This document shows positions 1 to 50,854 of a DNA stretch of 64,000 nucleotides, piece by piece (positions within the stretch are counted from its first letter, which is position 1; every line of letters starts with the position of its first letter). The DNA is taken from the NCBI RefSeq assembly GCF_018977255.1, contig NW_024704768.1, positions 4,216,001 through 4,280,000 of the forward strand. The letters are read 5' to 3'. The stretch comes from Callorhinchus milii (Eukaryota). The notes under the pieces are model-generated. The model searched no databases, had not been told where the DNA came from, and was given only the letters and a program-made list of their open reading frames with translations. The position numbers and the translations under genes were made by a program.

Positions 1-106
1 ACTCGCCATTTTCCATCTCCTTGAAGGTATCGATCTGGATTCGGAAAGGAACCCCTTTCTCCCCTCCATGCTTTCTGGTGGTGAACTCGGTGCTGATACA
101 ATGAAC
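1..106 (-). CDS. TFCP2: TFCP2 exon 6 (partial)
   Basis: [35 protein letters not shown]; TAG| acceptor at 107-108. Confidence 0.93.
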
Positions 107-3100
107 CTAAAGGAAACAGGCAGACGGACAACGTGACAGAGGGAAGAGCTAACGCCGTCAGAAAGCACGCCATTTAGAACCATAGAAACATATAGCACAG
201 GAGGAGGACATCTGACATTTGATCCCAACCCCCAGCTCAGGTCTAAATCCCTGAAAGTCCAGCGCCTTAGGACGTCCTCCCGCTGTGAAAGGCACTGTGT
301 AAATGTCAGTTGTTGTGCCCGTGCTGGCTCTTTTAAGATCAATCCTTTCAAGTCTCATTTACCTGCCCTGTAGTTGACTCCTTTTTCATTATTCATCCAG
401 TTCCCTTTTGAAAGCTGATAAGTAGCTGATACTTAGTAGATTATGCCCCAGTATTCTAATAATTAGTCGGAATTAAGATTTCTCGACTTCCCTCCTATAT
501 TAAAAATGAAGTTCAGATGTTTCTTCTGTATGGCTATTTTGTAAGACCACCTGCCCCATCTTCCTGTTGGGCCTGAAGACCTTTTCTTTTTGAAGACCTC
601 TTCAACCGTTCTCACGGTCAGCTCGCCCCTTCCCCCCAGCTCAGCATCGTGCTCTGCCACTGTCAAGCGCTCTGGGACACTACCCTGCCTGAGAGGCACT
701 GTGTAAATGCAAGTTGCTGTTGACCAATTCATATATAGAGCAACTCTCCAAACACTGCACGGAACGAGGTAACCAACGGAAGTAATTGTCCTACCTGGAT
801 AAATACAGAGGTTCTCTTTGAAGGGTCCCAAAGGAATTCGACTGTGTTTAGCTGAGTTGGGTTAGCTCTGGGGTCAACAATCCCGACCGACAAAGGAATA
901 TCTAAAGCCAACACAGACAGTCGTTACAGTGTGCCTTTCTTTAAAATTCAAATCTAACAATGCTGACATTGCTGTACGCAAACTGGCTGCCGCGCTTCGC
1001 CCACAAAACACGCAGTCACTCCATTTCACAGTATATCCTGCTTGAGACGTCTCGATGACGTGATAAGGCGCTGTGTCAAATGCGAGGATTGTTATTCCCC
1101 GGTTGAGTGGGTGACAAGTCACCTGCTCCCAGATCATTGCCAGGACAGATTTATAACCAAACGTTGGGATCCCACTCTGTGCAAAGCCGTTTTATCACAC
1201 TGACGTGCGTGATGGGAGGTTGCAGGACTGTGATTTCTGATCAGGTGTGCTGAAATTGGGAGCTCGTCGGGTCATAAAAATATAAGAACGAACCGGTCAA
1301 GTCACTGAAAGCAATTGAAATGAAAACAGAAATCGCGGGGAAGACTCAGCAGGTCAGGCAGCACCTATGGAGAGCATCTGATTGCACGTGCAACACGGCA
1401 AACAATGGCAGACACGTTACCTAAATCCAGGATTCTATCTCCAGGCCGGTTCCACCTCCATCCCTCCAACTGCTGGTGCTCTGTGTACTGCAATCGCCGG
1501 TCATGAAACACCACCCGGATAATGCTCTGCATGTAACACACGTGAAGTTGGGAACCAGACGTTTAATATGACCCATTTAACATCAATTTCAAGATCCTCA
1601 CACTCGTTTTCAAATCCCTTCATACCCTGGCACCTCCCTACCTCTCCGACCTACTTACTCCTTCAACCCACTACTCGCTGCCTCCGGTCTCCTGCTTGTC
1701 CCCTGTGCCCTCCGTTCCACCATTAGTGGTTGCACTTTTAGCCACTACGCCCCGAAACTCTGGAACTCTTCCTCAATCCCGCCGCCTCGCCCCTTCCTTC
1801 CCCATCTTCAGGGCGTGCCTATTCGACCCTGCTTACGGTCACCTCTCCCTCCGCCACTGTTAAGCGCTCTGGGACGCAAGTTGCTGTTGAGCGATGCAAA
1901 GTATGAGTTACGCAAAACTTATTAATAATAGGAAATTCCCGACTTAGGCGATTACATATTATATGACTATATTTTATCCAGGCCACACATTCCAGCTGAT
2001 AGATCTCCACTCAAGACGAAGATGGACCAGAAGCAGCCTCACTGTATTTGCCAACATCCCTTCCTCTTCTCACCTTCACATATTTGCCATTGATTTCTGG
2101 CAACTCGCCCAATTTCCGATTATCGAGCATCCGGATTTCATAAGACTGTCCTGAAATCAGAACAAACCAGAATAGTAATGTCATAATAATCATCATCAGA
2201 ATAATAATCCTTGCATTCGATATAGCGCCTTATCACGTCATTGAGGGGTTTCAAAGCACTTCACAGGATGTACTGTAAAGTGTAGTGACTGTATACTTTG
2301 TGGGCAAAATCCGACAGTCAATTGCGCACAGCAGTGTCCCACCAACAGTCATGGATTGAGTGACTAAATTATTAGTTTTTTTGGAAAGGGATCATTACCC
2401 CCAGAAAAGCAACTGCCAATCGACTAACAACCAGGTTCCTACTTACAGCTAGGTAAACAGAGGCATGTGTGTGTGGAGCAAAGAAACTTGCCTAAGGTTT
2501 CTCCCCGCCCGGGAATCAAACCCAGGTCCTCTCGCTTGAGAGGCGTGCGCGCAAACCACTGAGCTACAGGACTCCACTGGGAAAGGGTTCTTTTTGCCTG
2601 CAGGACTCCACAAAGAGAAATTCCTAATGTGAGCGGTACTGAGCCTTACCTTGGTTAAGGTATGTAAGAGTTTCATCGTGGAGCTTGACGGCTGGGGAGG
2701 TGGCTGAACATAGGACATACTGAAAGGGCAGAAGTTTATTCTCATTTTCTGGAGGCAGATTAGACTCTTCCTGCTTGAAGATCGGTAGTGCAAGCACATC
2801 GCTAGATGCAGATCAGAAACAAAACAATAAAATGAATCCAAACACTTTCACTCAAGATTACATTTATATTCACAATAATCATCCTTGCATTTGATACTTG
2901 TGCTTGTGCATCGTTCTGACTCATTTGCCTGAGTCGGAAGATTGTGGGTTCAAACCCCACGCCAGGACTTGGAACTCATATAGTCTAAGATGATACACCA
3001 ATGCAATGCTGGGAAAAAGTGCTGGACTGTTGTAGATGCTGTTCTTTGGATGAAACGTTAAACCGAGCTCCCCATCTGCCTGTTCAGCTGGACGTTAAAG

Positions 3101-6100
3101 ATCTCCTGGCACTATTCAAAAAGATTTTGTTTTTCCCAGGTTCCTGATGTGAAAGGTGCTATACCAAGTGCGAGGATTATTATAATATAGCACCTTATCA
3201 TGCCATTGAAAAAGTTTGGTCACTCAATCCAACACTGTTGGTGGGACACTGCTGTGCGCAATTGGCTGCCGCGTTTCACTCACAAAATACACAGTCAATC
3301 CATTTTATAATATATTCTGTGAAGCGCTCTGAGACATCTCAACGACGTGATAAGGCGCTATATCAAATGCAAGAATTATAATAATTATTATCATTGAGAT
3401 ATCTCAAACCAATACAACACTACATTTGTATCACGTCGGGAGGATGTCCCAAGGGTGGGGTTGGGATTAGGGAGGGTGGAGGGCAGGGAGGACGGCCGAA
3501 GGCGCAGTCGAAGAGGAGGATCTTGAGACAGAATGACAGCTTTAATGACAATTTCAAAGTAAGAGCAGTTCTTCTGTACAGCATCACTGGTCAGGTAAAG
3601 GCCCAAATAACCAGCCTGGAGTCTGGAGGAGCGAGTCTAGTCTGGAGGAGCGAGCGATCAGTCAGTACGCTTCATTGGAAAACAGCTGCGAAAATCACAT
3701 ACACAAACAACCATATGCAACCTTTGCACGATTCAAATTACGGAGCATATCAAGTCACAGGAAAGTATCTGAACCATTCCACCAACAGCAGTAGGATGGA
3801 GATCCAGATCAAATCCTTAAATAAACTTCAGGAACCGAAGAGGAGTAATCCAATGTGCGGCTTTAGCTCAGAGGGCACGACAGGAAGTGGGAAAATACTA
3901 CGCAGAGTGTTGTGGCGAGATCGGAGTCCGAGGGCTGGCTGCTTAACGAGGAGGAATCCGAAGGTCATGAACTGCACGGACAAACGCGGGTTCATGACAA
4001 AAATGGCAGCACAAGCTTTTAATCACAATAAAAATAATAATAATCCTTGCATCGATACAGCGCCTTATCACGTTGTTGAGATGTCCCAAAGCGCTTCACA
4101 GAATATACTATAAAGTGGATTGACTGTGTATTTGTTGGTGAAACGCAGAAGCTAATTGCGCACAGCAGCGTCTCACAAATAGTTATGGAGGGATTATTAC
4201 CCCCGGAAAGTGATCTGCCAAGTAACAACCAGGTTACTGCTGGGTAACAGAGGCACGCGGAGTAAGGAAACTTGCCTAAGGTTTCGCCTCTGGAATGGAT
4301 TTTGCATCCACACAGCGAGGAATAACAACGTCAATCAAAAATAAAGTGAGCGACAGAAAACCCGATACTACAATTGGGACATAGAAAACACACCCCAAAA
4401 AAACCTGTTCTTCAGAGAACGTCAATTCACTTCCACCACTGGAGTAGTGTCTAACCGTTTTTGTCCACCTGCACCTCAATCATACGTGATTCCACTACAT
4501 ATTATTGAGAATGATTGGGAATGACCCTGTGTGGCTTTCCAGTAAGAGTACAAATCGAGGGGAAGAGAGAGACAACCACCACCACCACAAATTGCGTTCG
4601 TATAGCGCCTTTGACGCCATTAGGGTTACCAAGGTGAAATAAGTTGCCCCGTCAAAGAATAAAAAAAAGTGACAAAATGAAACGTACGTCATCTGAGAAG
4701 CACGTTGAAAGGTTTTCGGTGAGCAAAAGGGTTAAAGGCTATTACTCTGAAAAGCATGCTCTACAAATCCCATTAGTGCAAGGGGCTTGAGCACTCAACT
4801 GTGAAGATAGTGGATGACTTTGTTCATATTCAAGCCAAAAGCTATCTGCGTGCAATTGCTGGGAGCAAAGCCAGCCTGTACCTTTTCCAATGAGATGTGA
4901 CCAGGCAAAAACACCCAAAACACTTTACTCTGTAAACAGCACTCGGTAAGAGGCAGAAGGCATCTTCCAAGCTGCTCGACTACGTTACTGACACCTCTAG
5001 TGACAACATAATTTGAAGAAGTCAAATGGGAAAATACTACAAGTACTGGAAAGAATGCATTACCAGGTAGAGATGTGAACCGCTTCTCAAGGGAAAGCAA
5101 CATAGACAAGTCTCTTTACGCACATCAGGGCAAGAATGCAGTGATAACTTTATCATACCAGTTTAAGCGCTCTAAGACGCTACTCTGCGTGGAGAGCGCT
5201 GTGTGAGTGCAGGTTATTGCTGTTACCACTGCACTTGAATGAAGTCTCAATAAACACAAATGTCAACTGAGGCAGAATAATAATCCTTGCATTTGGTATA
5301 GCACCTGATCACGTCTTCAAGATGTCTCAAAGGGCTTCACAGAATATACTGTAAAGTGGAGTGACTGTATACTTTGTGGGAGAAATGAACTAAGGAGCCA
5401 CACTGATCTAAGCCAAGAATGGACCAAACACCGATTCTAACACTCTACCAAACCAAACCAAAGCCACAACAACAAATCACACTGCATACAAATAGCGTTT
5501 CATGTCGGGAAGGACACCCCAAAGCACTGGGCAGTCAAGGACGTGCACCCAAAGCAACGCCAAATGGGATTTATAAACACCAAGTACAGAAAGACGGTGA
5601 AGCTCTTGCACAGATAGGCTTCTCAATTTTCGGCTTGAATATCAGCAGATTCATCTGTTACCTTCACAGTTGAGTGCCCCAGCCCTTCCACTAATAGTGT
5701 TTGTACGGCAAGTTTTCAGAGCTGGAAGCGTTTCATTCACCTAAACCTACTTACGATGCCCCTTTAAAAATAGCCATTTGTTCTAACACCCTGTACGGTA
5801 AATACAGTAATCTCTTCCGTTGCCCATTGCCATTCATTAGCGGCCAATAGCTACTCTCTGTCCATTTGTCTTTCGCTCTTTCATTTCAACGGGCATCATA
5901 AAGTTATTCTATCATGTTCAACCATCAGTGATCACTGTAACCAAATACAACGGGTAGAATAAACTGCTCAGCTGACACAGCAATTCACATCCAGCAGAAA
6001 GCCAAAGGAGAAAGACAGAGAGCTCACTTACAGGCCCGAGGGGCTGTGAGAGAATATGAAGGTCAGTTCAGGTCAGCTGTCTCAGTCGGGCGATCAAAAG

Positions 6101-9100
6101 AAGCTGCGTGTTCAGCATTTATCTTAACATCCTCAACCAGCGGAATACGGCCCCAAACAAACCCGCAGATTCAGGTCATGTTGGCTGCTGCATTTCGCCC
6201 AGAAAATACACAAGTCAATTCACTTCAGTATATTCGGTGAAGCGCTTTGAGACATCACGAAGACGTGACAAGGCTCTGTATCAAATGCAAGGATTATTGT
6301 TCATAGCCGGGCAGGAAGTTATTGAGTTATTTATCAAGTGGCTAAAGACTAGCTAAGACCCCAGGAATACTGAAAACTACTTGATGAAGTGGTTATTAGT
6401 TGAGTGCTCCCTCAAGCACCAGCAAAGCTGTCCGCAGGTCTGTCCAAAGAATCTTAGCTGCCCATCATCAGGTAGGTGATGAGAGGCCATCTACATTGAC
6501 AACCTGCGTTTACACAGCACCCTCTCACGCAGGGTAGCCTCCCAGCGCACTCGACAGTGACAGAGCACGACGCCCAGCTGGGGGGGAGATGATCGAAAGC
6601 ACAGTCGAAGAGGAAGGTCTTCGGGCACGACCTGAAGATGGGGAAGGAGCGGGCAAGGCAGAAGGATAGAGAGAGGAAGAGTGCTCCAGAATTTCGGGGA
6701 GTAGTGGCTGGAAGCACGGCCACCGATGGTGGAACGGAGGTCATGAGGGACAATCATAAGTCTATTCTGAAAAACAGAAATGATCTGTTGCTAAGACCGA
6801 GTCAACAGGTTGCTAAGCAGCACTAAAAATATCCGTCAGCGACTTGGTATGAATAATTCCGCTTTGGTTCAAAGTCCTGAACTCCAGCGGCAGACACACA
6901 CCGGAAGGAGCATTACAAACATTAATCATGGAAAACCCATTAAAGGGTGTGCAAATGACTTTCATGTAGTGCTGGTGCACTCAACACATTGTGCTATTTG
7001 GTAATGAGAGACGCAAGATAGTCAAATCAACAACATACAGTGCTGTCTATCCCTCAGCCAGATCCCACCCTGTTGAGGATAAATAATTACCTGCCAGCAG
7101 GCCAGTGAAAAAATACTAGCCAGTACAATATTTTTTGAAGGGAGTGGGGAAAAAGAGAAAGGAGACAACAAGGAATTCATGGATAATGTATCATCATGTA
7201 GCATACTCTAGGTATATCCACTTGATATAGCGCAGTTTTTGTGGGACACAGCCAGCGCAATTGGCTGCCACATTTCTCCCACAGAATACACGACAGTTAA
7301 CAGTATATTCTGTAAAGAGCTTTGAGACGTCGTGAAGACGCAATAATTATTATTAACGTCAGAAGGATGTCTCAAAGCACTTCACTGGATATACTGTGAA
7401 GTGTAGTAGCTGTGTAATTTGCAGGTGGACGGTAAGGAAAGCGAGACAGAACATCTATTGTGATCAGTTTGCTGCATTGTGTTTATGTACGAATTGATCA
7501 TGGCTTAGCCTCAAGCAACAGTTAGCCCTGACTGTATTTAGTCATGCGGCCATAACAATTTAACGTTATTGCCCTAAAGTCAATCAGGCAGGACATCAAG
7601 TTCAAGCACACTGCAAAGGGAAATAAGGGCTAAAAGATACCAATAAGAGCCAAATCAGCTTGATCAGCTCTCAGGCATTCCTTAAGATTCTGGGTAGATT
7701 GGTTCCATCCAGAGAGCACCTCACTTGCAGATCTAGTAGGTCATGGAATTAGTGTGGCTTTCTGTCAAGCGCTCTCAGACTCCGTCCTGCGTGAAGGGCG
7801 CTATATAAATGCAAATTGCTGCTGTTGTAGTGTGCAAGCCAACAAAATGTGTTCAGGAGGACGGCTGCAAGACATCCAGTGATTTTTCAAAGACTTATGA
7901 TTCGGAAGCCTGAACCTCGATAATAGCTTCAAAACCAAACAGAAATAAAAAAAATAATTAAATCCACGACTGTGCGTGGGGCACAACTATGCGCAATTGG
8001 CTGCCACGTTTGGCCCACAACATATCCAGTCAATTCACTTTACAGTGTAACCTGTGAAGCGCTTTGAGACGTCTTGAAGACTATGTCAAATGCAAGGATT
8101 ATTATTAACAGAATACAGAGTTGTGCATGACAACTTGACAGAACAGGTGGTCCAGTCACCAAGGTTTCCCTCTGCCATCATTGAAAACTGTTTTGGTGCT
8201 GTGGACTTGCTCTCACGTAGACCTCACCATCAATGGGTCCGTTCTGTGCCTCTTCCTCCCACCGACTTTCCACCAACATTTGCAATAAATGGAGACTTCA
8301 ACAACTACTTAGCCATTCTCCTTCTTCCTTTACACATATGGCAAGGTGCATCATTGCCATACTTGCTGATGATTCCACTGTCCGAAACAGCCATTTTTTC
8401 CCCCTCTCCTGGAGATTCCCATCACTTATGATCAAGAAACCCCTGACACTGATCAACCTGCTGTGAATATTCAGCACTGTTTTTAACCGGGGGGGGGGGG
8501 GGGAACAGAAAAGTTTGACCTCTATACTTCTTCCACATTGCACATTTCATCACGTGGTTTCACTATTCAGTTCAACAGGTTTTGTCATCAAACAAGCAAT
8601 AAATCAATCAACGTGAAAGAATCCTATTTTCCCCTGTAGCAACGCTGAACTGGTTTTAGGTTTAAGCGACACGGACTTTCAATGTCGTGCATCAGCCCTA
8701 ACCTGATTGAGTCTAAAATATAGGCACATATCTTGGGAGTCCTGTCGCGTATTGGTTAGAGCACTCGCCTGGCAAGCGAGAGGACCCGGGTTTGATTCCC
8801 AGGTGCAAAAACATGGGCAAGTTTGCTTACTCCACGGTAAGCAGGAACCTGGTTGTGGGTCAACTGATGGGATCAAATGCAGCGATTATAAATATTATAC
8901 CAAATACGGGTATTATTACTATTATTATTATTATCCTTATTATTATTATGTCAATGCAATATTATTATATCAAGTACAAGGATTATTATATCAAATGCAG
9001 GGACTATTATCATATCAATACAATTATTAGTATTATATCAAATACAAGGATTATTATTATTATTATATCAAATCGAGGGATTATTATTATCCTATCAATA

Positions 9101-9572
9101 CAATTATTAGTATTAAATCAAATACAAGGATTATTATATCAAATGGAGGGATTATTATTACATCAAATGGAGGGATTATTATTATCCTATCAATACAATT
9201 ATTAGTATTAAATCAAATACAGGGATTATTATTACATCAAATGGAGGGATCATTATTATCATAGCAATAGAATTATTAGTATTAAATCAAATACAAGGAT
9301 TATTATATCAAATGGAGGGATTATTATTATCCTATCAATACAATTATTAGTATTAAATCAAATACAGGGATTATTATTACATCAAATGGAGGGATCATTA
9401 ATATGATGATGATGGTGGAGGTGATGGAGGTGGAGATGGAGATGGTTTACCTCATGCTGTAGGCTCCAGCTCCGAGCTCCTGGCCGATGCCGGACAAACT
9501 GGCGTCGAAGTCCTGCACCAACCCGGACTCGATCACCTCATCGGGCATCGGCATCTTCAGGGCCCAGGCCAT
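1..9572 (-). CDS. TFCP2: TFCP2 (CP2/LSF transcription factor), 5' part: join(9451-9572, 2650-2801, 2074-2150, 1421-1526, 795-901, <1-106); continues beyond window start
   Basis: Six GT-AG bounded exons join in frame to [53 protein letters not shown]...[20 protein letters not shown]...[28 protein letters not shown], the CP2 DNA-binding domain; synteny with POU6F1 favours TFCP2 over UBP1/TFCP2L1. Confidence 0.95.
795..901 (-). CDS. TFCP2: TFCP2 exon 5
   Basis: [35 protein letters not shown]; 107 nt. Confidence 0.95.
1421..1526 (-). CDS. TFCP2: TFCP2 exon 4
   Basis: [35 protein letters not shown]; 106 nt. Confidence 0.95.
1583..1890 (+). mobile_element. LINE L2 3' fragment
   Basis: [25 protein letters not shown]-like remnant and AAGCGCTCTGGGAC tail; similar fragments at 6490-6750, 12400-12585, 15085-15350, 49100-49500, 49940-50240, 54830-55135, 57000-57200, 62640-62930, 63790-64000. 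Confidence 0.75.
2074..2150 (-). CDS. TFCP2: TFCP2 exon 3
   Basis: [25 protein letters not shown]; 77 nt, canonical splice sites. Confidence 0.95.
2200..2578 (-). mobile_element. tRNA-derived SINE (dominant family), near full length
   Basis: tRNA-like head GTAGCTCAGTGGT...GGTTTGATTCCC, body GGAACCTGGTTGTTAGTCGATTGGC, tail GGCGCTATATCGAATGCAAGGATTATT. Confidence 0.85.
2650..2801 (-). CDS. TFCP2: TFCP2 exon 2
   Basis: [50 protein letters not shown]; CTAG| acceptor, |GTAAG donor; 152 nt. Confidence 0.95.
2915..3145 (+). mobile_element. DeuSINE-like element (SacSINE1/AmnSINE1-related)
   Basis: GGATGAAACGTTAAACCGAG...GGACGTTAAAGATCTCCTGGCACT matches the Deu-domain as I recall it; related copies at 37300-37455 (-) and 41725-41900 (+). 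Confidence 0.6.
8880..9400 (+). repeat. AT-rich minisatellite built from SINE-tail units
   Basis: Repeated TATATCAAAT(GC/AC/GG)A(A/G)GGATTATTATT and TATCAATACAATTATTAGTATT. Confidence 0.85.
9451..9572 (-). CDS. TFCP2: TFCP2 coding exon 1
   Basis: ACC-ATG-G start, [13 protein letters not shown]...GAYSM, donor AG|GTAAAC; 122 nt. Confidence 0.95.
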
Positions 9573-14281: not shown

Positions 14282-14666
14282 TCAACCCGTTCCTGTAGAG
14301 TCGGTTAACGGGGCCAGCAAACCGGAGTCGTTCTGCTGGAGCCTCTTGACGGTGTTCTTCAACGTCTGCCTCTTGTTGCAGAACCAAACCCTCACGACCT
14401 CTCGCTCGTAGTTCAGCTGCTCGGCGATCTGCGTCATCTCCTGTCCCGTGGGGTGGGTGTTCTTCTCGAAGTGCACGTTGAGGGTCTCGAGGGCCTGCGG
14501 GGTGAAGGAGGTGCGGCGCTTGCGTTTCTTCGAGGGTTCGCTCCCCACGAACTCCGTCAGGTTCTGTATCCCCGCCCGATGCCTCACCTCAGCCTCCGTC
14601 AGCCACCGTTCCAGCACCGGCTTAATCTTCTGCGCACTCTTCGGTGTGATGTCTAATTTCTCAAAC
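14282..14666 (-). CDS. POU6F1: POU6 last coding exon (end of POU-specific domain, linker, homeodomain, stop)
   Basis: FEKLDITPKSAQKIKPVLERW...WFCNKRQTLKNTVKRLQQ...GTG-TGA. Confidence 0.95.
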
Positions 14667-17600
14667 CTAGGAGAACGCCAAACAAAAACAACAACAAATT
14701 ACATTTGTATAGCGCCTTTACTTTCGGCCGATTTCCCCCTCCTCCCCCCTCCCACACACACAAACAATAATAATCCTCGCATTTGTTAACAGAGCGCCTC
14801 ATCACGTCTTCGAGACGTCTCAAAGCGCTTCACGGGATACACCGTCAAGTGTAGTGACTGTATTGTGTGGGTGAAACGCGGCAGACAATTGCGCCCAGCG
14901 ACGTCCCCACAAACTATCTCAAAGTTCCTCCTCTTGCTGTTGATGCTCTCGATTTTTCTAACCACACATCTCAAGAGCTGGGCATCAGGTCCGACACCCC
15001 AGTTGTCCTTCTGCTCTGCAGCCCACCCCCCCCACCCGACCCCCCCGCGCATCCCCACCCAACCCCACATCAATTGCAAAATTAACAACACGTGATGTTT
15101 ACAGGGGGCCTTTCACGTCGGGAAGACGTCCCGAGGCGCTGGACAGTCAGGGATCCACACCCGAGCTGGTGGTTGGGATGAGGAGGGGGTGGAGGGCGGA
15201 TAAGGGGGTAACCACAGGCACGGTTGGTCGAAGAGGAAGGTCTTGAGATGGGTCTTGAAGGAGGCCAGGGAGTGGAGGCGACGCGAGGCGGAGGGACTGG
15301 AGATGGAGTTCCAGTGGGGGCGGGGCGGCAGAGAGGCTGAAGTCGATGGTGAATTAAGCCTCCAAAGTAAAACACGTGGAGGTAGGTAGAATATTCCCGG
15401 AACAATTCTGCACTCACCTGCACGGGAGTGGGGTAAGTCGGGTTCAGAGTACTGCGCCTTACATGCTTTAAGTACGGTTATTTCACGAGGGCCTGCTCAG
15501 TTAGTTACATACCAAGAGGGTGGTGTGTGTTGGCTACCTGCAGATGGCTGACTGACTGTACGCTGGGCCTTCTGCAGCGCTCAGCGCTTGTCCAACCTGG
15601 GTCTGGGTCAGACCCAAGGACAGTCGGCGGATCTTGAAGTTCTTCGCAAACTCGCGAATCTCTTCCAGGTTTATCCCATCCACCTCTGTCGGTGCGTTTT
15701 GAGGTTCTGGTACGAGAGGGAAAGGAGAGAGAGAGAGAGAGAGGAAAAAAAAAGGTCAGGATTCCATTCCCCGCGCCCCACTCCAGCCAAAAAATAATCC
15801 GAACAATAACTCGGTCGCTCGCGACGATCTCCTTGCGTTTGATACACCGCCTCGTCGCGTCTTCGAGATGTCTTCTCCGCCGAATATACGGCAAAGTGCA
15901 GTGACTGTGTGTTTCGGATTGATGTACAACTTGGGGGCCACTGCGCGACTGATACAGATCAGACTCGTGCGAGTTGTACTGTGTAATCTGACTGTCCGAT
16001 ACTTACTGCTGACCAGCTGTCCTACGCTGGCCGTGGAGGGAGTGTTGATGGGGGGGCTCAGGGGCTCGCCGGGTGTGGGGGCTGCCACCGGCATCACCAC
16101 AGCCGCTGATGGTGTTAATGTTGCCGTAGTTGCTGCTGGCGTTACACTGGGCTGTGTGACAGGAGCCGCTGTCTGCGGAGTTTGTACCTGTAATAATAAT
16201 AATAATAATAATAATTGACTGTCCAGTGAAGGCAAAATGCTGCAGATGCTGGAAATCTGAAATAGAAAAATGAGATGTGAATTTCTCGTGGAATTCCTCA
16301 GGGGTTCTGCAAACGGGGACGACACCCGGTGAATAATACTAATCGTTGCATCTCACAGCCCGTTGGGAGGGGTCGGAAACTGGCAAATCGATCCAACCGC
16401 AGCCTTTGGAGCTCTGGTTCAGTGTAAGTTTCCTTTTAAGATTTGCGCTTGGGCGACTTCGAAGTTAAGGCTGGATTCAACGGTTTGCCAAACTCTGGAC
16501 GTCCCCTAACGCTGTATTAAACGGGAGTAAATCTGGAGCCCGGGGTGGGGGTAGGAATGAATTTCTCCCTCGTGGCCAGACTGAGTTTCCGGTCAGTAGA
16601 AGGCACGAACACATTACTTATCCCACTTAACCTTTCGGCATCTGTGATGAATTCAGGCAACGCAGCTTAAGCACATCTGGGGCAGCAGCGTCCCCACAAA
16701 CAGCGGGGGATTGAGTGACCACGTTTTTTGGGGGGGAAAGTGATTTAGCTAACAAGCGGGTTCCTACTTGCTGCCGGGTAAACAGAGGCATGTGTGTATG
16801 TGCGTGTGTGTGTGTGTATGTATATGTGTGTCTGTATGCGTATGTGCGTGTGTGTATATTTGCGGGCACGTGTGTGATGGCGTTACCTGTTGTGCCGTCT
16901 TCGCGGACGAGGCCGGGACGCCCGGACTGCTGCCGAGGACGGACATGAACGGGTTGCTGATGACGGTGGCGATCACCTGGCCCTGGGAGGTCAGCAGCAC
17001 CTGTGGAGAGAGGGACTGGACCTGCAGACTCTGGGCCGACAGCGTCACCGGGGTCACTGCCGGGTTCAGCACAAAGGGCAGCGTCCCGATCACCTGGAAC
17101 ACGGGAAGAGCGGACTTGCAGATAGACCCGGAGACCACTTGCCAGGCTTTTTTTTTTTCCCCTTTCCAAGAGGGCGAGCGCGACGACTTAGCGTGGTCCA
17201 ACTGAGTTGGCGGTCCAACTGCCGGCCCCCGGGTCGCATCCGGTCCCCGAGACCGATTTCACCCCCCACCCACCCACCCCACCTCCATCTCATCTGGCAC
17301 CCCCACCCGTTCCCCTCCACTTAACCCGTGATGTTTCTGGAAGGGAAAGGCCAAAGGTACCGCCGCCTTAACGGGACCCCGGTATTTACTCGTCTCAAAG
17401 TCGGGTGAGCCCCCGGTCCTCGGCGGCCGAAAGGTCGCGATCCCTGATCGTTTCGATCGAGCGCCTGATCGGGCGGCCGAGGATGGGATTGCGCAGCGAA
17501 GGGCATCGGGTCGAGGAGCCGGTGCGAGCGGAGCAGGCTCACCTGTCCTTGCGCATTGGTGATGATCTGGTTGGTGATTCCCTGAAGGCCAGGCAGGGCG

Positions 17601-20472
17601 CTGGCTATAACTGAAGTAGCAGCCAAGGATCCCATCAGCGGAGTCTGACTGCTCAGCTAGGGAAGGGAGAGAAAAACATACCGTTCGTCTCAATAATAAC
17701 AACAACAGGGCCTTTCACGTCAGCTGGACAGACGGAGTTACGGACCCGAGATGATGGTAATGTAATTGTAATGGGGGCTAAGCGTTAGGCTGTTACATAC
17801 TTCTTTTCAGTTTCCTGTTGTTTCTTGATAAGTCATTCAAAAACTAACGGTTATTGGGCTGTTAACCTTCCAAGCCAAAGCCCTAACTAACGGGGAGGGG
17901 GGGGGGTCCCAGCTTGACAAGCAGCGGGAAAGCTCGGCCAGACAGCGCTCTCTCTCTCTCTCTCTCTCTCAATGGCCAAGTCATGTGTGGGTTTAGCTGG
18001 TTAGACTCCAGCAGTTACCCCCAACGCAAACTCTGGGCCCCCCACACATCCCCCCAAGGCTTGGCTCTCACCAACCTGCGCCTAATACTCTCTGGGTCTT
18101 TAACGTCCACCTGAACCCGCAGATGGGAACTTCTGTAAAGTAGCGGCTGTGTTCTTTGCAGGTAAACGCAGCAACCAATTTGCACCCAGCGACTTGTTGT
18201 TGATGTGAAGCAGCTTGAGCAACGATTCCCCCAATGGATCTCACATTCAACAATGATGAAAGGGTGGCAGAGTTGGGGAAATCCCAGGAGAGCTTCCACA
18301 GTCCCTTTGATGAGACAGACTGCTCGATAGGAGGAGTCCTGTAGCTCAGTGGTTGGAGCGCTCCCCCTCGCAAGCGAGAGACATGGGTTTGCCACGCACG
18401 TACACACACACGTCTCTGTTTACCAGCAGTAAGTAGGAACCCGGTTGTTAGTCGATTGGCGGATCGCTTTCAGGGTGTAATAATTCCTTTTTAAAAAAAT
18501 AATAATTTGGTCGCTCAATCCACGGCTGTTTGTGGGGACGCTGCTGTGCGCAATCGGCTGCCGAGTTTCGCCCACAAAACATACAGTCAATTCACTTTAC
18601 AGTATATTTCCGTGAAGCGTTTTGAGACGTTCTCGAAGACGTGATAAGTCGCTGCGTCAAATGCCAGGATTATTATTATCATTATTATTCATAATAACAA
18701 CTCACGATTGTGGGGTTCAGGGCCAGTCCTTGTATTGGTTGGATTGAGGTGACCTGGGGTTGCAGCTCAGACTGTTTCGCGGTTACAAGAGGTGTCGCGA
18801 GCGACGGGAGAGCGGTCAGGGGCTGGAGTCCGTGTTGAACCTGTGCGGGTTGGAATGCCGACGCTGCTACAAAGAGAATCGGAAACAGGTGCGAGGCGTT
18901 TTAGAACCGAAGATCGACTACAGCAGCCACAAACCGTCAGGTGGCAAAGGGGAGGAACGGTTAAGTTTACCGCTGCGTAAAAGGGACACAGCACAACAAC
19001 AACAACAACAGAGTGCTTGACGGTGGCGGAGTCTGACCCCAAGCCGGTGGAGGGGGAGAGAGAGGGGGGGAAGTGGGGTGACCGTAAGCACGTTCAATTT
19101 GTTGTCATTGCGGTTGACGATAATAACCCTCACATTATTTTTTCCCCTCTAACCAACCGAGCGACAAGACTTCACGCGACGTGTAACCTACCCTGTATGT
19201 TTGCGAGGGGGAGCTTTAGGATGCCTCCTGCAGTGGTTGGGGTGGTCAGGCCTGACACAGTTGCGAGACTCGCTGTGGGAATGGTCAGCACGAGTCCCTG
19301 GTGACCGGTCACTTGACCGGCCATGTTCAGCGGGATGAGGAGAGGTTGGTTTAAGGAGACGGCTCCAGTTGATGTCATCACCACCGCGGCCAGTCCCTCC
19401 GCAGCCAAAATCTGAGGGCAGAAATCAGTTTCTAAGTCTACTATTAAGACGATAATCTGACAACAACCCTCGCATTGGACCCGGCGCCCGATCACGCCTT
19501 CGAGGCGTCCTCAAAGCGCTTCACAGGATCTGCTGTAAAGTGAATCGACCGTGTATTTTGTGGGCGAAACGCGGCAGCCGACTGCGCACGGCAGCGTCCT
19601 CACAAGTGAGCGAGTTACCTGTGGCATCGCGGCTGTTGAGTTGGGCGCAGACAGCTGGGCTTGTGGTTGCTGGCTGGCCTGCACCTCGTTGGCTGGGGTC
19701 ACGGCGACTGGGACAGCAGCGACTGGTGTTATTGCTTCTGCCTGGCCTGAAAGGAAGTAAAACTGACCGTTTTGTTAAACAGAAATAAATAAAGTGGACG
19801 CTTACCATACAATAATAATATCGATAACAACAATAATCCTGGCATTTGACCCGGCGCCTGAGCACATCTTCGAGACGTCTCAAAGCGCTTCACGGGATAC
19901 ACTGTAAAGTGTAGTGACTGTGTAATTATGTGGGCGACTGCCAGCGGGGGGTGTGGGGGGAATTAGTTGGGGGATTGTTGGCCGGGACACTGTGAGAACC
20001 TCCCTCCCGCGCGGCAGGGGATCTTTCAGCAATTGGCACTTTTTTGTGGACCGAGGTCTGCAAGGCAAATGCTTAGCATAGAAACAGAAGGAGGCCATTC
20101 AGCCCCTCGAGCCTGTCCCGCCATTCCATTAGAACATGGCCTATCTGTACCTCAGGTCCAATTACCCGCCTTTGCCCCGTTCCTCCTTAACACCCCGACC
20201 TCACAGACATCTGTCCACCTCGGGCCCCTCGAAAGCGTGAATGACTCCAGCCACGTAAACACAATAGGTCCTCGCTCACCAATAGGACCCGCGCCTTGGT
20301 TCTCAGGCGCAGGGTCACTGGCCACGCCTGGGGCTTCCACATTCCCGCTGCTTCCGTGTTTTCCCTCCGACGTGGCTGGCGCGGCGCAGAGGGCATTCCC
20401 CTGAAGCCCGGCATCGTCCGCGGCTTTCGACGGCATCTCCTCTTGGCTTGACCGAGTGCCCTGACCAGACAT
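14282..20472 (-). CDS. POU6F1: POU class 6 homeobox protein at the POU6F1 syntenic position: join(20280-20472, 19619-19746, 19192-19411, 18706-18866, 17543-17656, 16887-17093, 16007-16187, 15538-15706, 14282-14666), 585 aa from MSG start; possible upstream coding exon 24201-24261
   Basis: All exons GT-AG and phase-compatible (1758 nt); POU-specific domain INLEEIREFAKNFKIRRLSLGLTQTQVG...SAICRFEKLDITPKS and homeodomain KKRKRRTSFTPQ...VVRVWFCNKRQ; flanked by TFCP2 and DAZAP2. Confidence 0.88.
15538..15706 (-). CDS. POU6F1: POU6 exon, POU-specific domain
   Basis: PQNAPTEVDGINLEEIREFAKNFKIRRLSLGLTQTQVGQALSAAEGPAYSQSAIC; 169 nt. Confidence 0.95.
16007..16187 (-). CDS. POU6F1: POU6 exon
   Basis: VQTPQTAAPVTQP...ASVGQLVS; donor |GTAAGT; 181 nt. 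Confidence 0.85.
16887..17093 (-). CDS. POU6F1: POU6 exon
   Basis: VIGTLPFVLNP...SLQVQSLSPQVLLTSQGQVIATV...TAQQ; 207 nt. Confidence 0.9.
17543..17656 (-). CDS. POU6F1: POU6 exon
   Basis: LSSQTPLMGSLAATSVIASALPGLQGITNQIITNAQGQ; 114 nt. Confidence 0.9.
18332..18690 (+). mobile_element. tRNA-derived SINE
   Basis: GGAGTCCTGTAGCTCAGTGGTTGGAGCG head through GGATTATTATT tail. Confidence 0.85.
18706..18866 (-). CDS. POU6F1: POU6 exon
   Basis: ASAFQPAQVQHGLQP...QPQVTSIQPIQGLALNPTI; needed to bridge phase 1 to phase 0; TAGCAG tandem acceptor, |GTGAGT donor. Confidence 0.85.
19192..19411 (-). CDS. POU6F1: POU6 exon
   Basis: ILAAEGLAAVV...NQPLLIPLNMAGQVTGHQGLVLTIPTA...GGILKLPLANIQ; 220 nt. Confidence 0.92.
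19619..19746 (-). CDS. POU6F1: POU6 exon
   Basis: QAEAITPVAAVPVAVTPANEVQASQQPQAQLSAPNSTAAMPQ; 128 nt, phase 1 to 0. Confidence 0.85.
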
Positions 20473-30866: not shown

Positions 30867-33472
30867 GTGAATGAACTAATTTAACCGTACACTTGTACAC
30901 TGCTCCAGAGGTAACGTGTTCCATCTTAGCTTCTACCAGACATTCCTTTGCATAAGTTATGTGCTGACCCTCGCCAATAGTAAGCCATAAAATGCCACGT
31001 GCCTGAGAAACTTGGATATTTTCATCCCAGCTGTGGTCTAACAAGCTCATCAAAAACTCGGGCTTTTGTAGGTTGTGGATCCGAGATTCTGCCGTGCTCT
31101 CGTGTCAGATCTGGAATCGTAATGTTTCTTGAATAGGTCGGAATCCCTTGTCGCTGTAAGAACATAAGAATTCTCTAGGCAAAAGAAGACCGAGGTCCAT
31201 CCAGTTCACCTTCCACCAACCATCCTGGAAATCGCTTGACATGACGTGTCCCCAAACTATCTACTTGATCGCCAGATATTATTTCCTACCAGAAATCTTC
31301 TAATCTGTTCTTGGGCGGGGGAAAAAAATGGTCTGCCTTTTTTGAGGGAAAAAAACACACTTTCTGACTGATTGGGCTTTAAACGAAACGCTGATTTTTT
31401 TTAATATAGGTTTAATTATCCCAATTTTCTCTTTTCACATCAGCATCTAATTCAGTATTGCATTCTGTCCAATGTAATACTGTATGTGGTTGAGCTTAAC
31501 ACCATTTTTGAAGGCTTGCGATTTTTTTTTTTGCTTGCGTGTGATGGTAGAAATAATAAATGTACAATGTGTATTAATTGGCTCTAATCCTAGAACTGTT
31601 CACTCTATTGCCCCAGCAATTACAGCATTTATCGTTAAACGTTAGCACGCTTACTATTTTGTCTCATTTTGTTAGGCGCTTGATGCTTTGAAAATGAAAT
31701 AATTCTCCTCTTTTTAGGGTATCAATTTATCAATTTTCACATCCGTTGGCTCCCAAGGAGGAGAGGTGCTATTGCCAAATCCTTTTGAGAATAGACACCT
31801 CGTTCGCCTACAGGAACTGAAATTAAAATTGATTCTAGAAATTGCATTATTGCTATATGGCATCGTTAGTGTCATTCATTCGGTTGCTCAAAATAAATGA
31901 CTTTTGACCCTTCCGCCTGTCGTGACTGAACATGGGTGGCTGTCAGCAGTGGCTCTTTTTTAAAATTATTGTAGTATCACATGAGATTCAAAAGGGATTT
32001 GGATAGATATTTGAACAGAAAAAAAAATGCAAGCCTATGGGGTAAGAGCGGGGGAGTGCGACTGATTGGGTAGCTCTTTCAAAGAGATGGCTCAGGCACG
32101 ATGGGCCGAATGGCCCTCCTTCTGTGCTGTAATACTCTATGAGATTACAATACCACTTAATGATAAGAGACCAGGTCATGGAAAGCTGACATGGAACTGA
32201 AGATCATTGAAAGTGATTGATTGGATTGCAATTTACTTTAGAAAATTGCTCCAGATAATAAGTGGATTTACTGACAATGTTAGAACCCTGAAGTAAAATG
32301 ACAGCCTTGCATGGTTATGATCTGTACTGGCAATAATTCATAGATTTATAGAGAGCTCAGAAACGGAATTAATTTGCTGTCCTGAAGCAGATTGCAAAAA
32401 AAAAACACGCAATTCTGATATGTCATTATTGGATCGAGTATATCTATTTTATATATATCAGCCAAATGGCCTGTTTCAGAGCTGTAGATTCATTCTATGT
32501 AACCGTGTTCATGTCCGTTCTATGATGCACAGAAGGTTTCCTGAGAAAACTAAATTGGTTTTGTTTGCGTTTCCAGCTGTACGATCCAAGATATGTGCAC
32601 GCTCCAGCTAATGTTGGTGCTGGCTTTCCAGGTGGTATGTATGTCCCGGTAACTGCTCAGATGCCCATGGGGCCAGTTGGTGCTGGGATGCCCATGACCT
32701 ACTATGCGGTGCCACAATTATTCCCTCAATCCTCAACCGTCCTCATGGAGCGAGGGTTCGATCCAGGTGCCAGGTTTGGAGCGGGAGCCTCCGCTAGCAT
32801 TCCGGTAAGTGTTCCCAGCGGCGCTCCTGCGTCCTGCCGTGCGGCTTCTTCCCTCCCGTACCCAGTCTCCGGAGCTTGCCAGACGGCGCTCTCAATGGCA
32901 AGCTGTTCGGTTCTAGCTTGTCTAGACTCCCCAGCAGTTACCCCCAACGCGCACTCCCGACTCGGCTCAGGGAGTACTTGAAGAGTGGGCAAGATTACCA
33001 GAGACGTGCTGGTCTTCAAACAAACATTTACCTGTACGATTTGGGGTCGACTTGGAATATTGCGGTCGAGCCCGCTCGCAGTATTCCAGGGCATTCGCTG
33101 TTGGCGACAGCACAGCCCGGCCTGGCTCATCCATCGGCAGGACCCGGAAGGGCCAACCAGTCACTGAACGTCGGGGAGACATCTCACTCACAGACTCCTG
33201 TTAGCCCCCAAGCCAAAAGCCCTGGCGGGTAGCATGGCTCCAGCTGGCCAAGTCGGCGGGAAAGCTTGACCAGAGAAACATACCGTGGCGCGCAGTCTTA
33301 ATCTGTTGTTTTTTCCCCCTCTTTGTCTTGTGTTCTGCTCCAGCCTCCTCCGCCCGGCTGTCCTCCGAACGCAGCCCAGATTGCGGCCATGCAAGGTGCC
33401 AACGTCGTGGTGACGCAGAGAAAAGGCACCTGGTTCCTAGGCGGTTCGGACGGCGGCTACTCGGTCTGGTAG
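30745..33472 (+). CDS. DAZAP2: DAZ-associated protein 2, join(30745-30866, 32577-32804, 33344-33472); first coding exon not visible
   Basis: PYSQQPCYP...AYAEAPPSYAE / LYDPRYVH...GFDPGARFGAGASASIP / PPPPGCPPNAAQIAAMQGANVVVTQRKGTWFLGGSDGGYSVW-stop, diagnostic DAZAP2 C-terminus. Confidence 0.95.
32577..32804 (+). CDS. DAZAP2: DAZAP2 exon 3
   Basis: 228 nt, CCG|GTAAGT donor. Confidence 0.95.
33344..33472 (+). CDS. DAZAP2: DAZAP2 last coding exon
   Basis: PPPPGCPPNAAQ...GGYSVW-TAG. Confidence 0.95.
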   Translation, partial: PPPPGCPPNAAQIAAMQGANVVVTQRKGTWFLGGSDGGYSVW

Positions 33473-45959: not shown

Positions 45960-48376
45960 GGACGGAGACAGAGAGAGAGACAGAGAGAGGCGAACGCCAC
46001 CGACTGAGTCAGCCGGAGAGCTACGTGGCTTTGTGAACAGCCCTTGAGATTAGTTTGTGCCCAACAACAATATTAATAATAATCCTTGCAATCGTCGTAG
46101 CGCCTTATCATCACGTCTTCGAGACGTCTCAATGCGCTTCCAGGTGCACAGCGTAAAGTGTAGTGACTGCGTGTTTTTTTTTGTGAGCGAAACCGCGGGA
46201 AGCCAATTTGCGCACAGCAGTGTCCCGCAAAGAGTCGCAGAGGATTGATTCGAGTTCCCCACTCCCCACCTCACCTCGGTGGGTTGCTGTGGTGAGATGT
46301 TGGTTGGGGCTGGTTCGGAGCGAGGCTGTGGGTCACTGGAACAGTCATTGACTTTGGCTGCAGGAGCCTCGCTGGACACCATGAGGTTTTCAGAGGAAAG
46401 CACGGCATCAGAGAGAAGATTGGAAGAGGCTAAATTATCAGCAGAAACTTGCGTGTCGGAGTCTGGAAATGAAACATTGGGAGTTGGGGAGCTGATTGGC
46501 ACAGTGACCACTCTAGATGATGGTGGTTCGTCTGACGAAGCTTTAGAGGTAGCTAGGACTTCAGGAGTCGCGGAGGTTAATTGCAAGCATTCCTCGTTAG
46601 AGGGTTGACCATTGGAAACGAGCACATCAGCGGAAACCTGGAACGGGGACTCGAGCTGTGAGATTTCAACGGACGCACAGCTGACTGGCACAGCCAACTG
46701 GTTGGATGGATGTTCCTTGGAAGAATCTGAGTCTGCAGACACCTCACCCACAGGCTGACTGCAGGTAACAGGCAGAGACAAACCCCCGGGAGACAATCCT
46801 GGAGGAGAATCGAGTGGAGAATCGGCAGAAGATTCTTCACTTGACGACAGAGATGAAAGGGTTTGAAGGTCCTCAATGGCTGTGTTGGCTGGTATGGTGT
46901 TGGAGACACTGAGCGTCGCTGGTGTTAGCGAAGAGACCGAGGCACAGTCGGGCAGGTCAACCAACGTTTGCTCTGAAGGAGATGGGTGGCTTCTGGGTTC
47001 CTTGGCTGGACGATCCCTGCCAAGGTCAGAAGGTGTCGGAGTTTCCGAGGAGACTGCATCTCCGCCGCTCGCTGACGAGGACGATGACATAGCAGAGGAC
47101 ATTGGGTCTGGCGATGAGGGAGGGGACTGAGAACACGGAGCCTGGTCTGAGGGAAAGTGAGAGGGCGATAGGGCATGGCTAGACAATGGGAGGTCACTAG
47201 ACAATGGGAGGTCACCAGACATTGGGAAGTCACCAGACAATGGGAGGTCACCAGACATTGGGAGGTCACCAGACAATGGAAGGTCACCAGACATTGGGAA
47301 GTCACCAGACAATGGGAGGTCACCAGACAATGGGACATTGGTAGACAATGGGTCATCGCTAGATAATGGGAGGTCAGAAGACGATGGAGCCACCACACTA
47401 GATGGAGCCTCGTTGCTCGATTCGATCAGCTCGGGCATGGCCTCCCAAGCTGGCGTAGCTGGAACGTCGCCGGGCTTCGAAGGGGATAAGACCTCGTTCT
47501 TCGCTGACGGGTTGGTGCTCGCACTCGGCGGCTGGTCTGTGCTGCCTTCGGACGAGCTGGAGTGCCTGTGCATGGTTTTCACCGGAGATGAGATGATCAG
47601 TGAACGCCTTTTGCTGCAAAACAACGAGAACTTGGATTTATACAAAACCCATCACCCAGGACAGCATCTGGGAGCGCAATAGACACAATACACGGCAGCC
47701 TCAAATATTTATTTCCTGTCAATCTCCCGGTTGCCTTATAATAATAATAATATTAATAATAATAAGCCTTGCATTTGATACGGAGCCTTAATAATAACAA
47801 TGATAATAATTTAATAATAATTATTTGGGGAGGACAAGTTGACAGGGCTACGGGGAGAGCGCGGGGGAAGTTGGGTTAATTTGGACAACTCTTTCGAAGT
47901 GCCGGCACGGACACGATGGGCCGAACGGCCTCCCTTCTGTGCTGTATAACTCCGGGATTCTATAACTCTAACCCTCGCATTCGATTCAGCGCCTCATCGC
48001 GTCGATGAGACGTCTCAAAGTGCTTCACAGGATATACTCTCCAGTGTAGTGACTGTGTATCCCCTCTCCCCCCCCTTATGCGAAGGTTACCCTTTAAACG
48101 ATCTGCTATCACAACCCTCAGCGTAAAGTAATGACCGAATGAAAGCCGTTACCTTGAAACTCCCTTCACAATGAAGATTTTGTTGCTGTGCTCTTTCTCC
48201 TGTTTGGTCATCAGGACGTACATGTCCTGGTTCAGCTGCAAAAAGGCAAGATGATATAATAACAATAATAATACTAATAATAATTAATAATAATGATCCT
48301 TGCGCTTGGGATTATTACTCCTGGAAAGTGATCCGCCAATCGATTAGGAACCAGGTTCCTACTCACTGGTAAACAG

Positions 48377-49795: not shown

Positions 49796-50854
49796 CCTCG
49801 CACTTGACCCAGCGCCTTCTCACGTTGTTGAGGCGTCTCAAAGCGCTTCACAGTGCACGCCGTAAAGTGCAGTGACTGTGCGTTTCACGTGTAGTGGCTA
49901 TGCCAATTGCGCCCAGAGGCGTGCCCACAAAACAGTCGCGGCGCTGGGTGGGAGGTGACCCCCAGGCGCCTTAGGTCGAAGAGGAAGGTCTTCAGCCACG
50001 ACCTGATGACGGGGGGAAGGAACGGGGGCAAAGGCGGAGGAATTGAGGGAGAGTGTTCCAGAGAATGTTTCGGAGGCGTAAGTGGCTGTGAGCGCGGCCA
50101 CTGATGGCGGAACCGAGGGCACGAGGGACAGGCAGGAGGCTGGACAGAGCCAGTCGAGCGGAGGCAGCGGGTAATGGGGGGAGTAAGCAGGTGGGGTAGG
50201 GAGGTGTCGGGGAGGTACGGGGAAGGGATTTGGAGGGACTCACCTTGAACTCGGGGAACTGGCTGACGTAGCTCTCCATTGTCCTCAAAGCCTGGTCAGA
50301 CAACTTCTCTCCATAGTCTGCCCACAGGAGGTCGCTGTTCTGCAAGGAAACATTCGGCCCTTGAGACACCGAGAGAGACGCTTTGCCGGAGCTTTATCTT
50401 TCTTCTGCTCCATCAAAAAATTCGACATGTTTCATGGCGGACTTTTGGCTTCTCCTATCTCCCCACCGCTCCCCTGCTCCACCAATAACCCCTGTCCCCC
50501 CCCCACACCGACCCTTCGAGACTGAGGTGGATCGAGTCAGGATATCTAGGGATATGGGGCGAAGGCGGATAATTGGAGTTGGTGTACAGATCAGCCATAG
50601 AATGGCAGAACAGGCTCAAGAGGCTGAATGGCCTCCTCCTGTTCCTATGTTTCTAAGATGTTCATACTTCCTACCAGGGACTGAAATTCCATCCAGGTTT
50701 AGATTTGACTATTATATATATAATTTTTGCCCAGCCGGGGGGTGTCTGACACGCACGGAAACCCATCACCGTTGCTTAAGAGTCTCCAAACCCAACTGAG
50801 AATTCCAGGCCTCCCGTCTACACCTGGGAATCCCAGAGAGAGACTGTTCGGATT

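Follow-up and report, generated by a model that had tools for sequence, protein, structure and literature searches.

We analysed the gene for the POU transcription factor POU6F1 in the chimaera Callorhinchus milii (elephant shark), within a window of 64,000 nucleotides (the whole stretch of DNA analysed, G000:C27:4216001-4280000; C2, C6, C27 and C163 are contigs of the same assembly). The last exon of this gene resembles that of its paralogue POU6F2, which very probably represents ancestral residues kept in cartilaginous fishes, while POU6F1 of bony vertebrates would have changed in one early burst. The gene consists of nine GT-AG coding exons on the minus strand (20472-14282) and its translation equals RefSeq XP_042200116.1 exactly; it is the ordinary C. 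milii POU6F1, already correctly named in RefSeq. A first-pass annotation of the window had quoted a POU6F2-like peptide, which is indeed encoded by the last exon on the minus strand, and had given the gene a span of 14282-19411, which holds that exon but omits the first two coding exons. The product matches the Pfam families Pou (E 7e-30) and Homeodomain (E 1e-17), and its best match among solved structures is POU6F1 (3d1n) with 172 bits, the runner-up reaching 75. With a POU-specific domain and a POU homeodomain, it is a class VI POU transcription factor.

Identity was counted across 110 aligned last-exon residues, comprising the end of the POU-specific domain, the linker, the homeodomain and four more residues. 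C. milii POU6F1 agrees with human POU6F2 at 96 and with C. milii POU6F2 at 95 of these positions, versus 84 for macaque and for coelacanth POU6F1, 83 for gar POU6F1 and 86 for amphioxus POU6. The human sequences that the first-pass annotation had quoted for comparison match database rows (human POU6F2, P0317; POU6F1 chain 3d1n; macaque POU6F1, P0178). In a search with the last exon the top 13 rows were cartilaginous-fish POU6F1 proteins (C. milii and 12 sharks or rays); the remaining 107 rows listed included none named POU6F1. All 13 proteins carry the POU6F2-like pattern. C. milii POU6F1 also has a longer, POU6F2-like tail, whereas the tail of bony POU6F1 is short. The preceding exon 8 product is identical to macaque POU6F1 at 46/48 and to human POU6F2 at 45/48 residues, and a search with residues 1-400 found coelacanth POU6F1 as the best bony match (151 bits; best POU6F2 132).

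To polarise the differences we used an alignment of 55 POU domains, hand-picked for taxon spread out of about 490 proteins (13 cartilaginous and 12 bony POU6F1, 6 cartilaginous and 9 bony POU6F2, 6 cyclostome and 9 invertebrate POU6). Group majorities differ at 28 sites of the last exon. At 18 of them cartilaginous POU6F1 equals POU6F2 and bony POU6F1 differs, four are shared by the two POU6F1 groups and six show other patterns. At 13 of the 18 sites the shark state is present in at least five of nine invertebrate POU6 proteins, while no more than one of nine has the bony state at any of the 18, and this state is never the majority; among the 13 cartilaginous proteins none has the bony majority state at these sites. 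The four shared sites (two before the homeodomain, HD27 and HD55; HD denotes homeodomain positions) set cartilaginous and bony POU6F1 against POU6F2 and most invertebrates. Judged by site polarity against the invertebrates, the likeness of the exon to POU6F2 is mostly shared ancestry, and the exon retains POU6F1 marks.

The derived states are common to bichirs, sturgeon, gar, teleosts, coelacanth and tetrapods, and for this reason the burst is placed on the bony-vertebrate stem, where it would postdate the separation from cartilaginous fishes and predate that of ray-finned and lobe-finned fishes. Eight derived residues were present in 120/120 bony-type proteins, a set that HD60 helped to define. 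The bony changes are concentrated in the linker, at HD13-36 and HD52, and from HD60 onward, where the short new tail replaces the longer one; likely about 18 changes and this tail were fixed together in one early burst. Strong constraint would then have returned: the macaque POU6F1 last exon is identical to that of coelacanth at 109/110 and of gar at 105/110 positions.

Phylogenies of the two parts of the protein agree on orthology. The last-exon tree (55 rows) unites cartilaginous and bony POU6F1 (97/94, the bootstrap being not fully settled), as does the N-terminal tree (34 rows, 325 columns; 99/99), in which two lamprey genes join POU6F2 (99/97); a grouping of cartilaginous POU6F1 with POU6F2 was recovered in neither. 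The approximately unbiased (AU) test rejected a cartilaginous POU6F1 plus POU6F2 constraint in all four runs, two on 21 rows (p 0.009, and p 0.015 when the constraint took in shark POU6F2 only) and two on 17 rows without cyclostomes (p 0.019, and p 0.029 under a mixture model). Both trees and the AU tests place the window gene in the POU6F1 orthology group. In the 55-row last-exon tree the bony POU6F1 stem measures 0.36 changes per site (0.31-0.36 across last-exon trees), later bony branches 0-0.05 and the cartilaginous stem about zero, and POU6F2 rows show near zero change, human and four sharks being identical. The corresponding stems in the N-terminal tree are 0.38 for bony versus 0.11 for cartilaginous POU6F1. 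Relative-rate counts gave an excess of bony change with p<0.05 in 16/18 last-exon comparisons and in 0/18 comparisons of the preceding exon, although these comparisons share data and are not independent. With amphioxus as outgroup, C. milii POU6F1 has 10 private changes and C. milii POU6F2 one. Shark POU6F1 is for this reason best described as an intermediate, itself partly derived, with POU6F2 closest to the ancestor. The asymmetric divergence of bony POU6F1 proposed by the first-pass annotation is supported by outgroup polarity, trees and relative rates, but its view that the shark gene retains the ancestral state holds only in part.

Several observations weigh against a retained ancestral exon and a single bony burst. 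Five of the 18 sites (78, 79, HD15, HD36 and HD62) are not polarised by invertebrates; cyclostome rows have the shark state at these five in 6/6, 5/6, 3/6, 3/6 and 1/6 cases, and at site 78 three of six have the bony state. The last-exon signal comprises only 110 columns and four clean sites shared by the POU6F1 groups, and two of these four states are also present in one or two invertebrates and in some cyclostomes. Cartilaginous POU6F1 does not resolve as a clade in the last-exon tree (49/0), and for the homeodomain alone the relative-rate excess has p<0.05 in only 9/18 comparisons. A tail motif of C. milii POU6F1 is common to POU6F2 and has no outgroup counterpart, and the tail was left out of the trees. 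Finally, the burst may have been caused by selection or by relaxation.

One alternative, also raised by the first-pass annotation, is an ancient gene conversion in which POU6F2 sequence replaced the POU6F1 last exon, wholly or in parts, in an early cartilaginous fish. We consider it very unlikely. It would account for an exon with 96/110 identity to POU6F2 next to a POU6F1-like N-terminus and for the shared tail motif, and synonymous saturation (27/36 four-fold sites differ between the C. milii last exons) leaves room for conversion more than about 400 million years ago. However, the four POU6F1 residues divide the exon into five intervals, all with POU6F2-like sites, so that five separate tracts would be needed, and most of the POU6F2-like states pre-exist in invertebrate POU6. 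Furthermore, the clade it predicts is rejected by the AU tests, the two genes lie on different contigs, and the longest identical DNA run between the C. milii last exons is 23 nucleotides. The run length and the 27/36 four-fold differences rule out recent conversion; in exon 8, 16/22 four-fold sites differ. An ancient conversion of the whole exon is rejected by the four POU6F1 residues and the AU tests, while very short ancient tracts may have been exchanged.

It is well known that the proteins of the elephant shark evolve slowly. A genome-wide slowness of cartilaginous fishes, with POU6F1 merely lagging and no special event, would fit this background and the N-terminal root-to-tip distances (about 0.34-0.55 in cartilaginous versus about 0.56 and up in bony POU6F1). 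Nevertheless it is highly improbable as the explanation, as the excess is confined to one internal branch with near stasis after it, no difference in rate is seen in the preceding exon, and the POU6F2 last exon is unchanged between human and four sharks.

Hidden paralogy can hardly be the answer either. Here shark and bony "POU6F1" would be different whole-genome-duplication copies left by reciprocal loss, and the long bony branch would mean longer time. The CP2-family and BAR-family neighbours do have paralogues (CP2 matches lie on C2, 0.87 Mb from POU6F2, and on C6), and the BAR-domain exon prefers BIN2 over BIN1 by just 2.6 bits. But the window gene sits in a POU6F1-type neighbourhood, as the first-pass annotation had stated, with a CP2-family gene downstream and DAZAP2 and a BIN2-like gene upstream. 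Human POU6F1 lies among TFCP2, DAZAP2 and BIN2. In sheep, an alphabetical list places POU6F1, TFCP2, DAZAP2 and BIN2 within one 1.08-Mb region (PMC12717993). For the CP2 gene that is fused to kiwi POU6F1, the window CP2 gene is the best match in 3/3 exons, ahead of the C2 and C6 paralogues (94.8 vs 78.9 and 75; 65.4 vs 61.7 and 60.5; 64.8 vs 54.4 and 50.3 bits). Moreover, the assembly yielded just two genuine POU6 loci, and extra time would lengthen the shark stem too, yet it is about zero in the last exon. The kiwi entry itself (XP_013798693.1, P0363; RefSeq "POU6F1") is a misassembled model that contains duplicated exons and is fused with the CP2 gene downstream. An assembly chimera joining a POU6F2 exon onto POU6F1, suggested by the resemblance alone in an assembly that does contain foreign DNA (C163), is refuted, since the same pattern recurs in the protein of twelve other cartilaginous species (Heterodontus identical at 105/110) and the true POU6F2 exon on C2 is just 74.5% identical in DNA.

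POU6 last exons occur at three places in the assembly: in the window (C27), on C2 and on C163. The C2 gene (G000:C2:16181696) is canonical POU6F2, with the 36-amino-acid alternative insert and 91% identity to shark POU6F2, and is thus a separate gene, distinct from POU6F1 of the window. A CP2-family paralogue at 15.31 Mb on C2 lies 0.87 Mb from POU6F2 at 16.18 Mb, echoing the CP2-POU6F1 pair on C27; the two pairs are likely a duplicated block. The C163 gene was considered as a lost third ohnologue and rejected. It is 97.7% identical over 213 amino acids to a Lampetra fluviatilis protein, and the contig (112,449 bases) has only 470 bases of repeats shared with the window versus 11,461 in 80,000 bases of C2; this near-identity and the scarcity of C. 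milii repeats indicate that the third copy is likely lamprey contamination of the assembly. Five further exons of the C163 gene have 89-97% identity to lamprey. Twenty sequencing runs with four organism labels each contain half or more of the words in a 1.2-kb stretch of C163, and no RNA run was among the matches listed. The two most N-terminal matched POU6 exons of C163 have the reverse orientation, which may reflect a local inversion or a misjoin.

As regards function, the POU-specific domain and the homeodomain, connected by the linker, would grip an AT-rich octamer-type site as in other class VI POU factors. Homeodomain positions 5, 50, 51 and 53 are the main DNA-reading residues, and R5, C50, N51 and R53 are identical across all POU6 groups compared. 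Because these base-reading residues are unchanged, the core DNA site is likely common to shark POU6F1, bony POU6F1 and POU6F2. Bony POU6F1 changed in the linker, in the helix 1-2 region and where the recognition helix ends, and an effect of these changes would more likely be on spacing tolerance, dimer geometry or partners. Mammalian POU6F1 is reported to favour a variant octamer (10.1101/589754), and POU6 proteins are described as able to bind DNA as dimers (PMC10436210). In Oct4 and Oct6, a single residue at the end of the recognition helix (POU residue 151) is reported to switch homodimer preference, involving the MORE dimer (PMC5286379). In our alignment this residue corresponds to HD59, where every POU6 row has T, and the bony I-to-S change lies one further, at HD60; the parallel may serve as a lead only. 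In predicted structures the recognition helix reaches HD67 in C. milii versus HD62 in macaque POU6F1, both models being too poor for a comparison, with a low predicted local distance difference test score (pLDDT; full-length means 49.6 and 39.1, respectively) and an unfolded POU-specific domain. A tentative and rather doubtful extension is delayed neofunctionalisation: long after POU6F1 and POU6F2 arose by genome duplication, selection would have rebuilt the POU6F1 linker, homeodomain surface and tail in the bony ancestor for a new dimer mode or partner, and sharks would keep two biochemically POU6F2-like factors. If so, shark POU6F1 is a living pre-change control and the switch could be tested by domain swaps.

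Few animal DNA-binding modules are as conserved as POU domains. The fixation of about 18 changes along a single short branch, with near stasis afterwards, therefore points to altered function of this neural and muscle transcription factor when bony vertebrates arose, with sharks as the natural intermediate. The pattern would also explain POU6 trees that place invertebrate genes with one vertebrate paralogue. The first-pass annotation had further warned that best-hit pipelines could misname the gene POU6F2. For full-length proteins this risk is small (13/13 are POU6F1 or POU6F1-like in NCBI), but C-terminal or domain-only fragments of shark POU6F1 would be called POU6F2 and deserve caution. In whole-protein BLAST against 22 bony proteins, POU6F1 was best for 12/13 cartilaginous proteins at both settings and one 326-amino-acid model flipped; against the primate pair alone, POU6F2 won in 1/13 or 3/13, depending on the setting.

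The features of the window are collected in the table below. The downstream CP2-family gene is presumably TFCP2, from its position and N-terminus; two short stretches of it gave no match in PDB or Pfam, but the own-genome family search did find the gene. The BAR family search of the genome missed the BIN2-like exon of the window. A Ser/Pro-rich open frame of 533 codons with a short tandem peptide repeat (46053-47651, minus strand) adjoins this exon and is probably a large BIN2 exon. In the homeodomain, the residues at HD15, HD33, HD41 and HD60 are private to C. milii among the 13 cartilaginous POU6F1 proteins. A part of human chromosome 12 is the reported homologue of the zebra-shark X chromosome (PMC12952989), so elasmobranch POU6F1 might be X-linked.

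Features of the C. milii window (positions from the first nucleotide of the window)
Feature	Position	Strand	Basis
POU6F1 coding exon 1, start codon at 20472	20280..20472	-	exon chain reproduces XP_042200116.1
POU6F1 coding exon 2	19619..19746	-	exon chain
POU6F1 coding exon 3, conserved N-terminal block that POU6F2 has too	19192..19411	-	exon chain and comparison
POU6F1 coding exon 4	18706..18866	-	exon chain
POU6F1 coding exon 5	17543..17656	-	exon chain
POU6F1 coding exon 6	16887..17093	-	exon chain
POU6F1 coding exon 7	16007..16187	-	exon chain
POU6F1 coding exon 8, initial two thirds of POU-specific domain	15538..15706	-	exon chain, Pfam
POU6F1 last intron	14669..15537	-	searched for the POU6F2 36-amino-acid alternative-acceptor insert
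POU6F1 coding exon 9: POU-specific domain end, linker, homeodomain, tail, stop	14282..14666	-	exon chain
Homeodomain positions 1-60	14348..14527	-	alignment and Pfam
Four POU6F1-specific derived codons, spread along exon 9	begin 14602, 14548, 14449, 14365	-	55-row alignment
CP2-family gene, downstream neighbour; exons near 9572-9453, 2812-2642, 1535-1419, 914-792, 118-1; continues past window edge	1..9572	-	own-genome family search
DAZAP2, upstream neighbour, two exons seen	32568..33469	+	Pfam PF11029 E 1.1e-12
BAR-domain exon, upstream	50235..50393	-	best solved-structure match BIN2 40.8 bits; BIN1 38.2

POU6F2 is described as carrying its 36-amino-acid alternative insert in the POU-specific domain (PMC10436210). 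The insert was present in 0/15 cartilaginous POU6F1-type proteins, and no remnant was found in the last intron of the window gene, the best scores (23-25) being equalled by 99-126 of 138 control stretches. Latimeria POU6F1 (P0362, UniRef H3AZ14), 1/110 bony POU6F1-type proteins, has a 39-amino-acid insert at the same place with weak similarity to the POU6F2 insert (12/5000 shuffles score as high), which is either a relic predating the split of the two genes or an artefact of homology-guided gene prediction. Two lamprey POU6 genes (lamprey rows P0228, P0229 and P0232) have a longer homologue of 51-56 amino acids (0/5000 shuffles); one more POU6 gene of lampreys and those of hagfish are unplaced.

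Compared with known systems, bony POU6F1 (Brn-5, mPOU; PDB 3D1N) is the orthologue of the C. milii gene, with the same neighbours, the N-terminal grouping, four derived last-exon residues in common and no 36-amino-acid insert in either. C. milii POU6F1 differs in having neither the 18 bony linker and homeodomain changes nor the short bony tail. POU6F2 (RPF-1) is alike in the last exon and has a similar tail, but it differs in its contig, its insert and an N-terminus that falls in a separate clade with two lamprey genes. The single POU6 of invertebrates (amphioxus, hemichordate, echinoderm, annelid, nemertean) has most POU6F2-like states in common with C. milii POU6F1, but another linker start and none of the POU6F1-specific residues. 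One amphioxus Pou6 against two vertebrate genes is also reported (PMC9953854). Gold et al. 2014 described asymmetric divergence among POU classes and hand-corrected a tree in which all invertebrate POU6 fell with one of the two vertebrate genes; the word "shark" is absent from its main text (PMC4245813). Our literature search, with subscription journals mostly outside its scope, found no paper on chondrichthyan POU6F1 evolution. The gene is known and correctly named, and its history is a real, seemingly unreported case of familiar asymmetric duplicate evolution, notable for its late and sharp timing. The gene sox15 is reportedly a further case of such evolution. As in these examples, one copy stays ancestral and the other accumulates changes; unlike them, the POU6F1 asymmetry is dated mostly to one lineage well after the duplication, and sharks preserve the intermediate.

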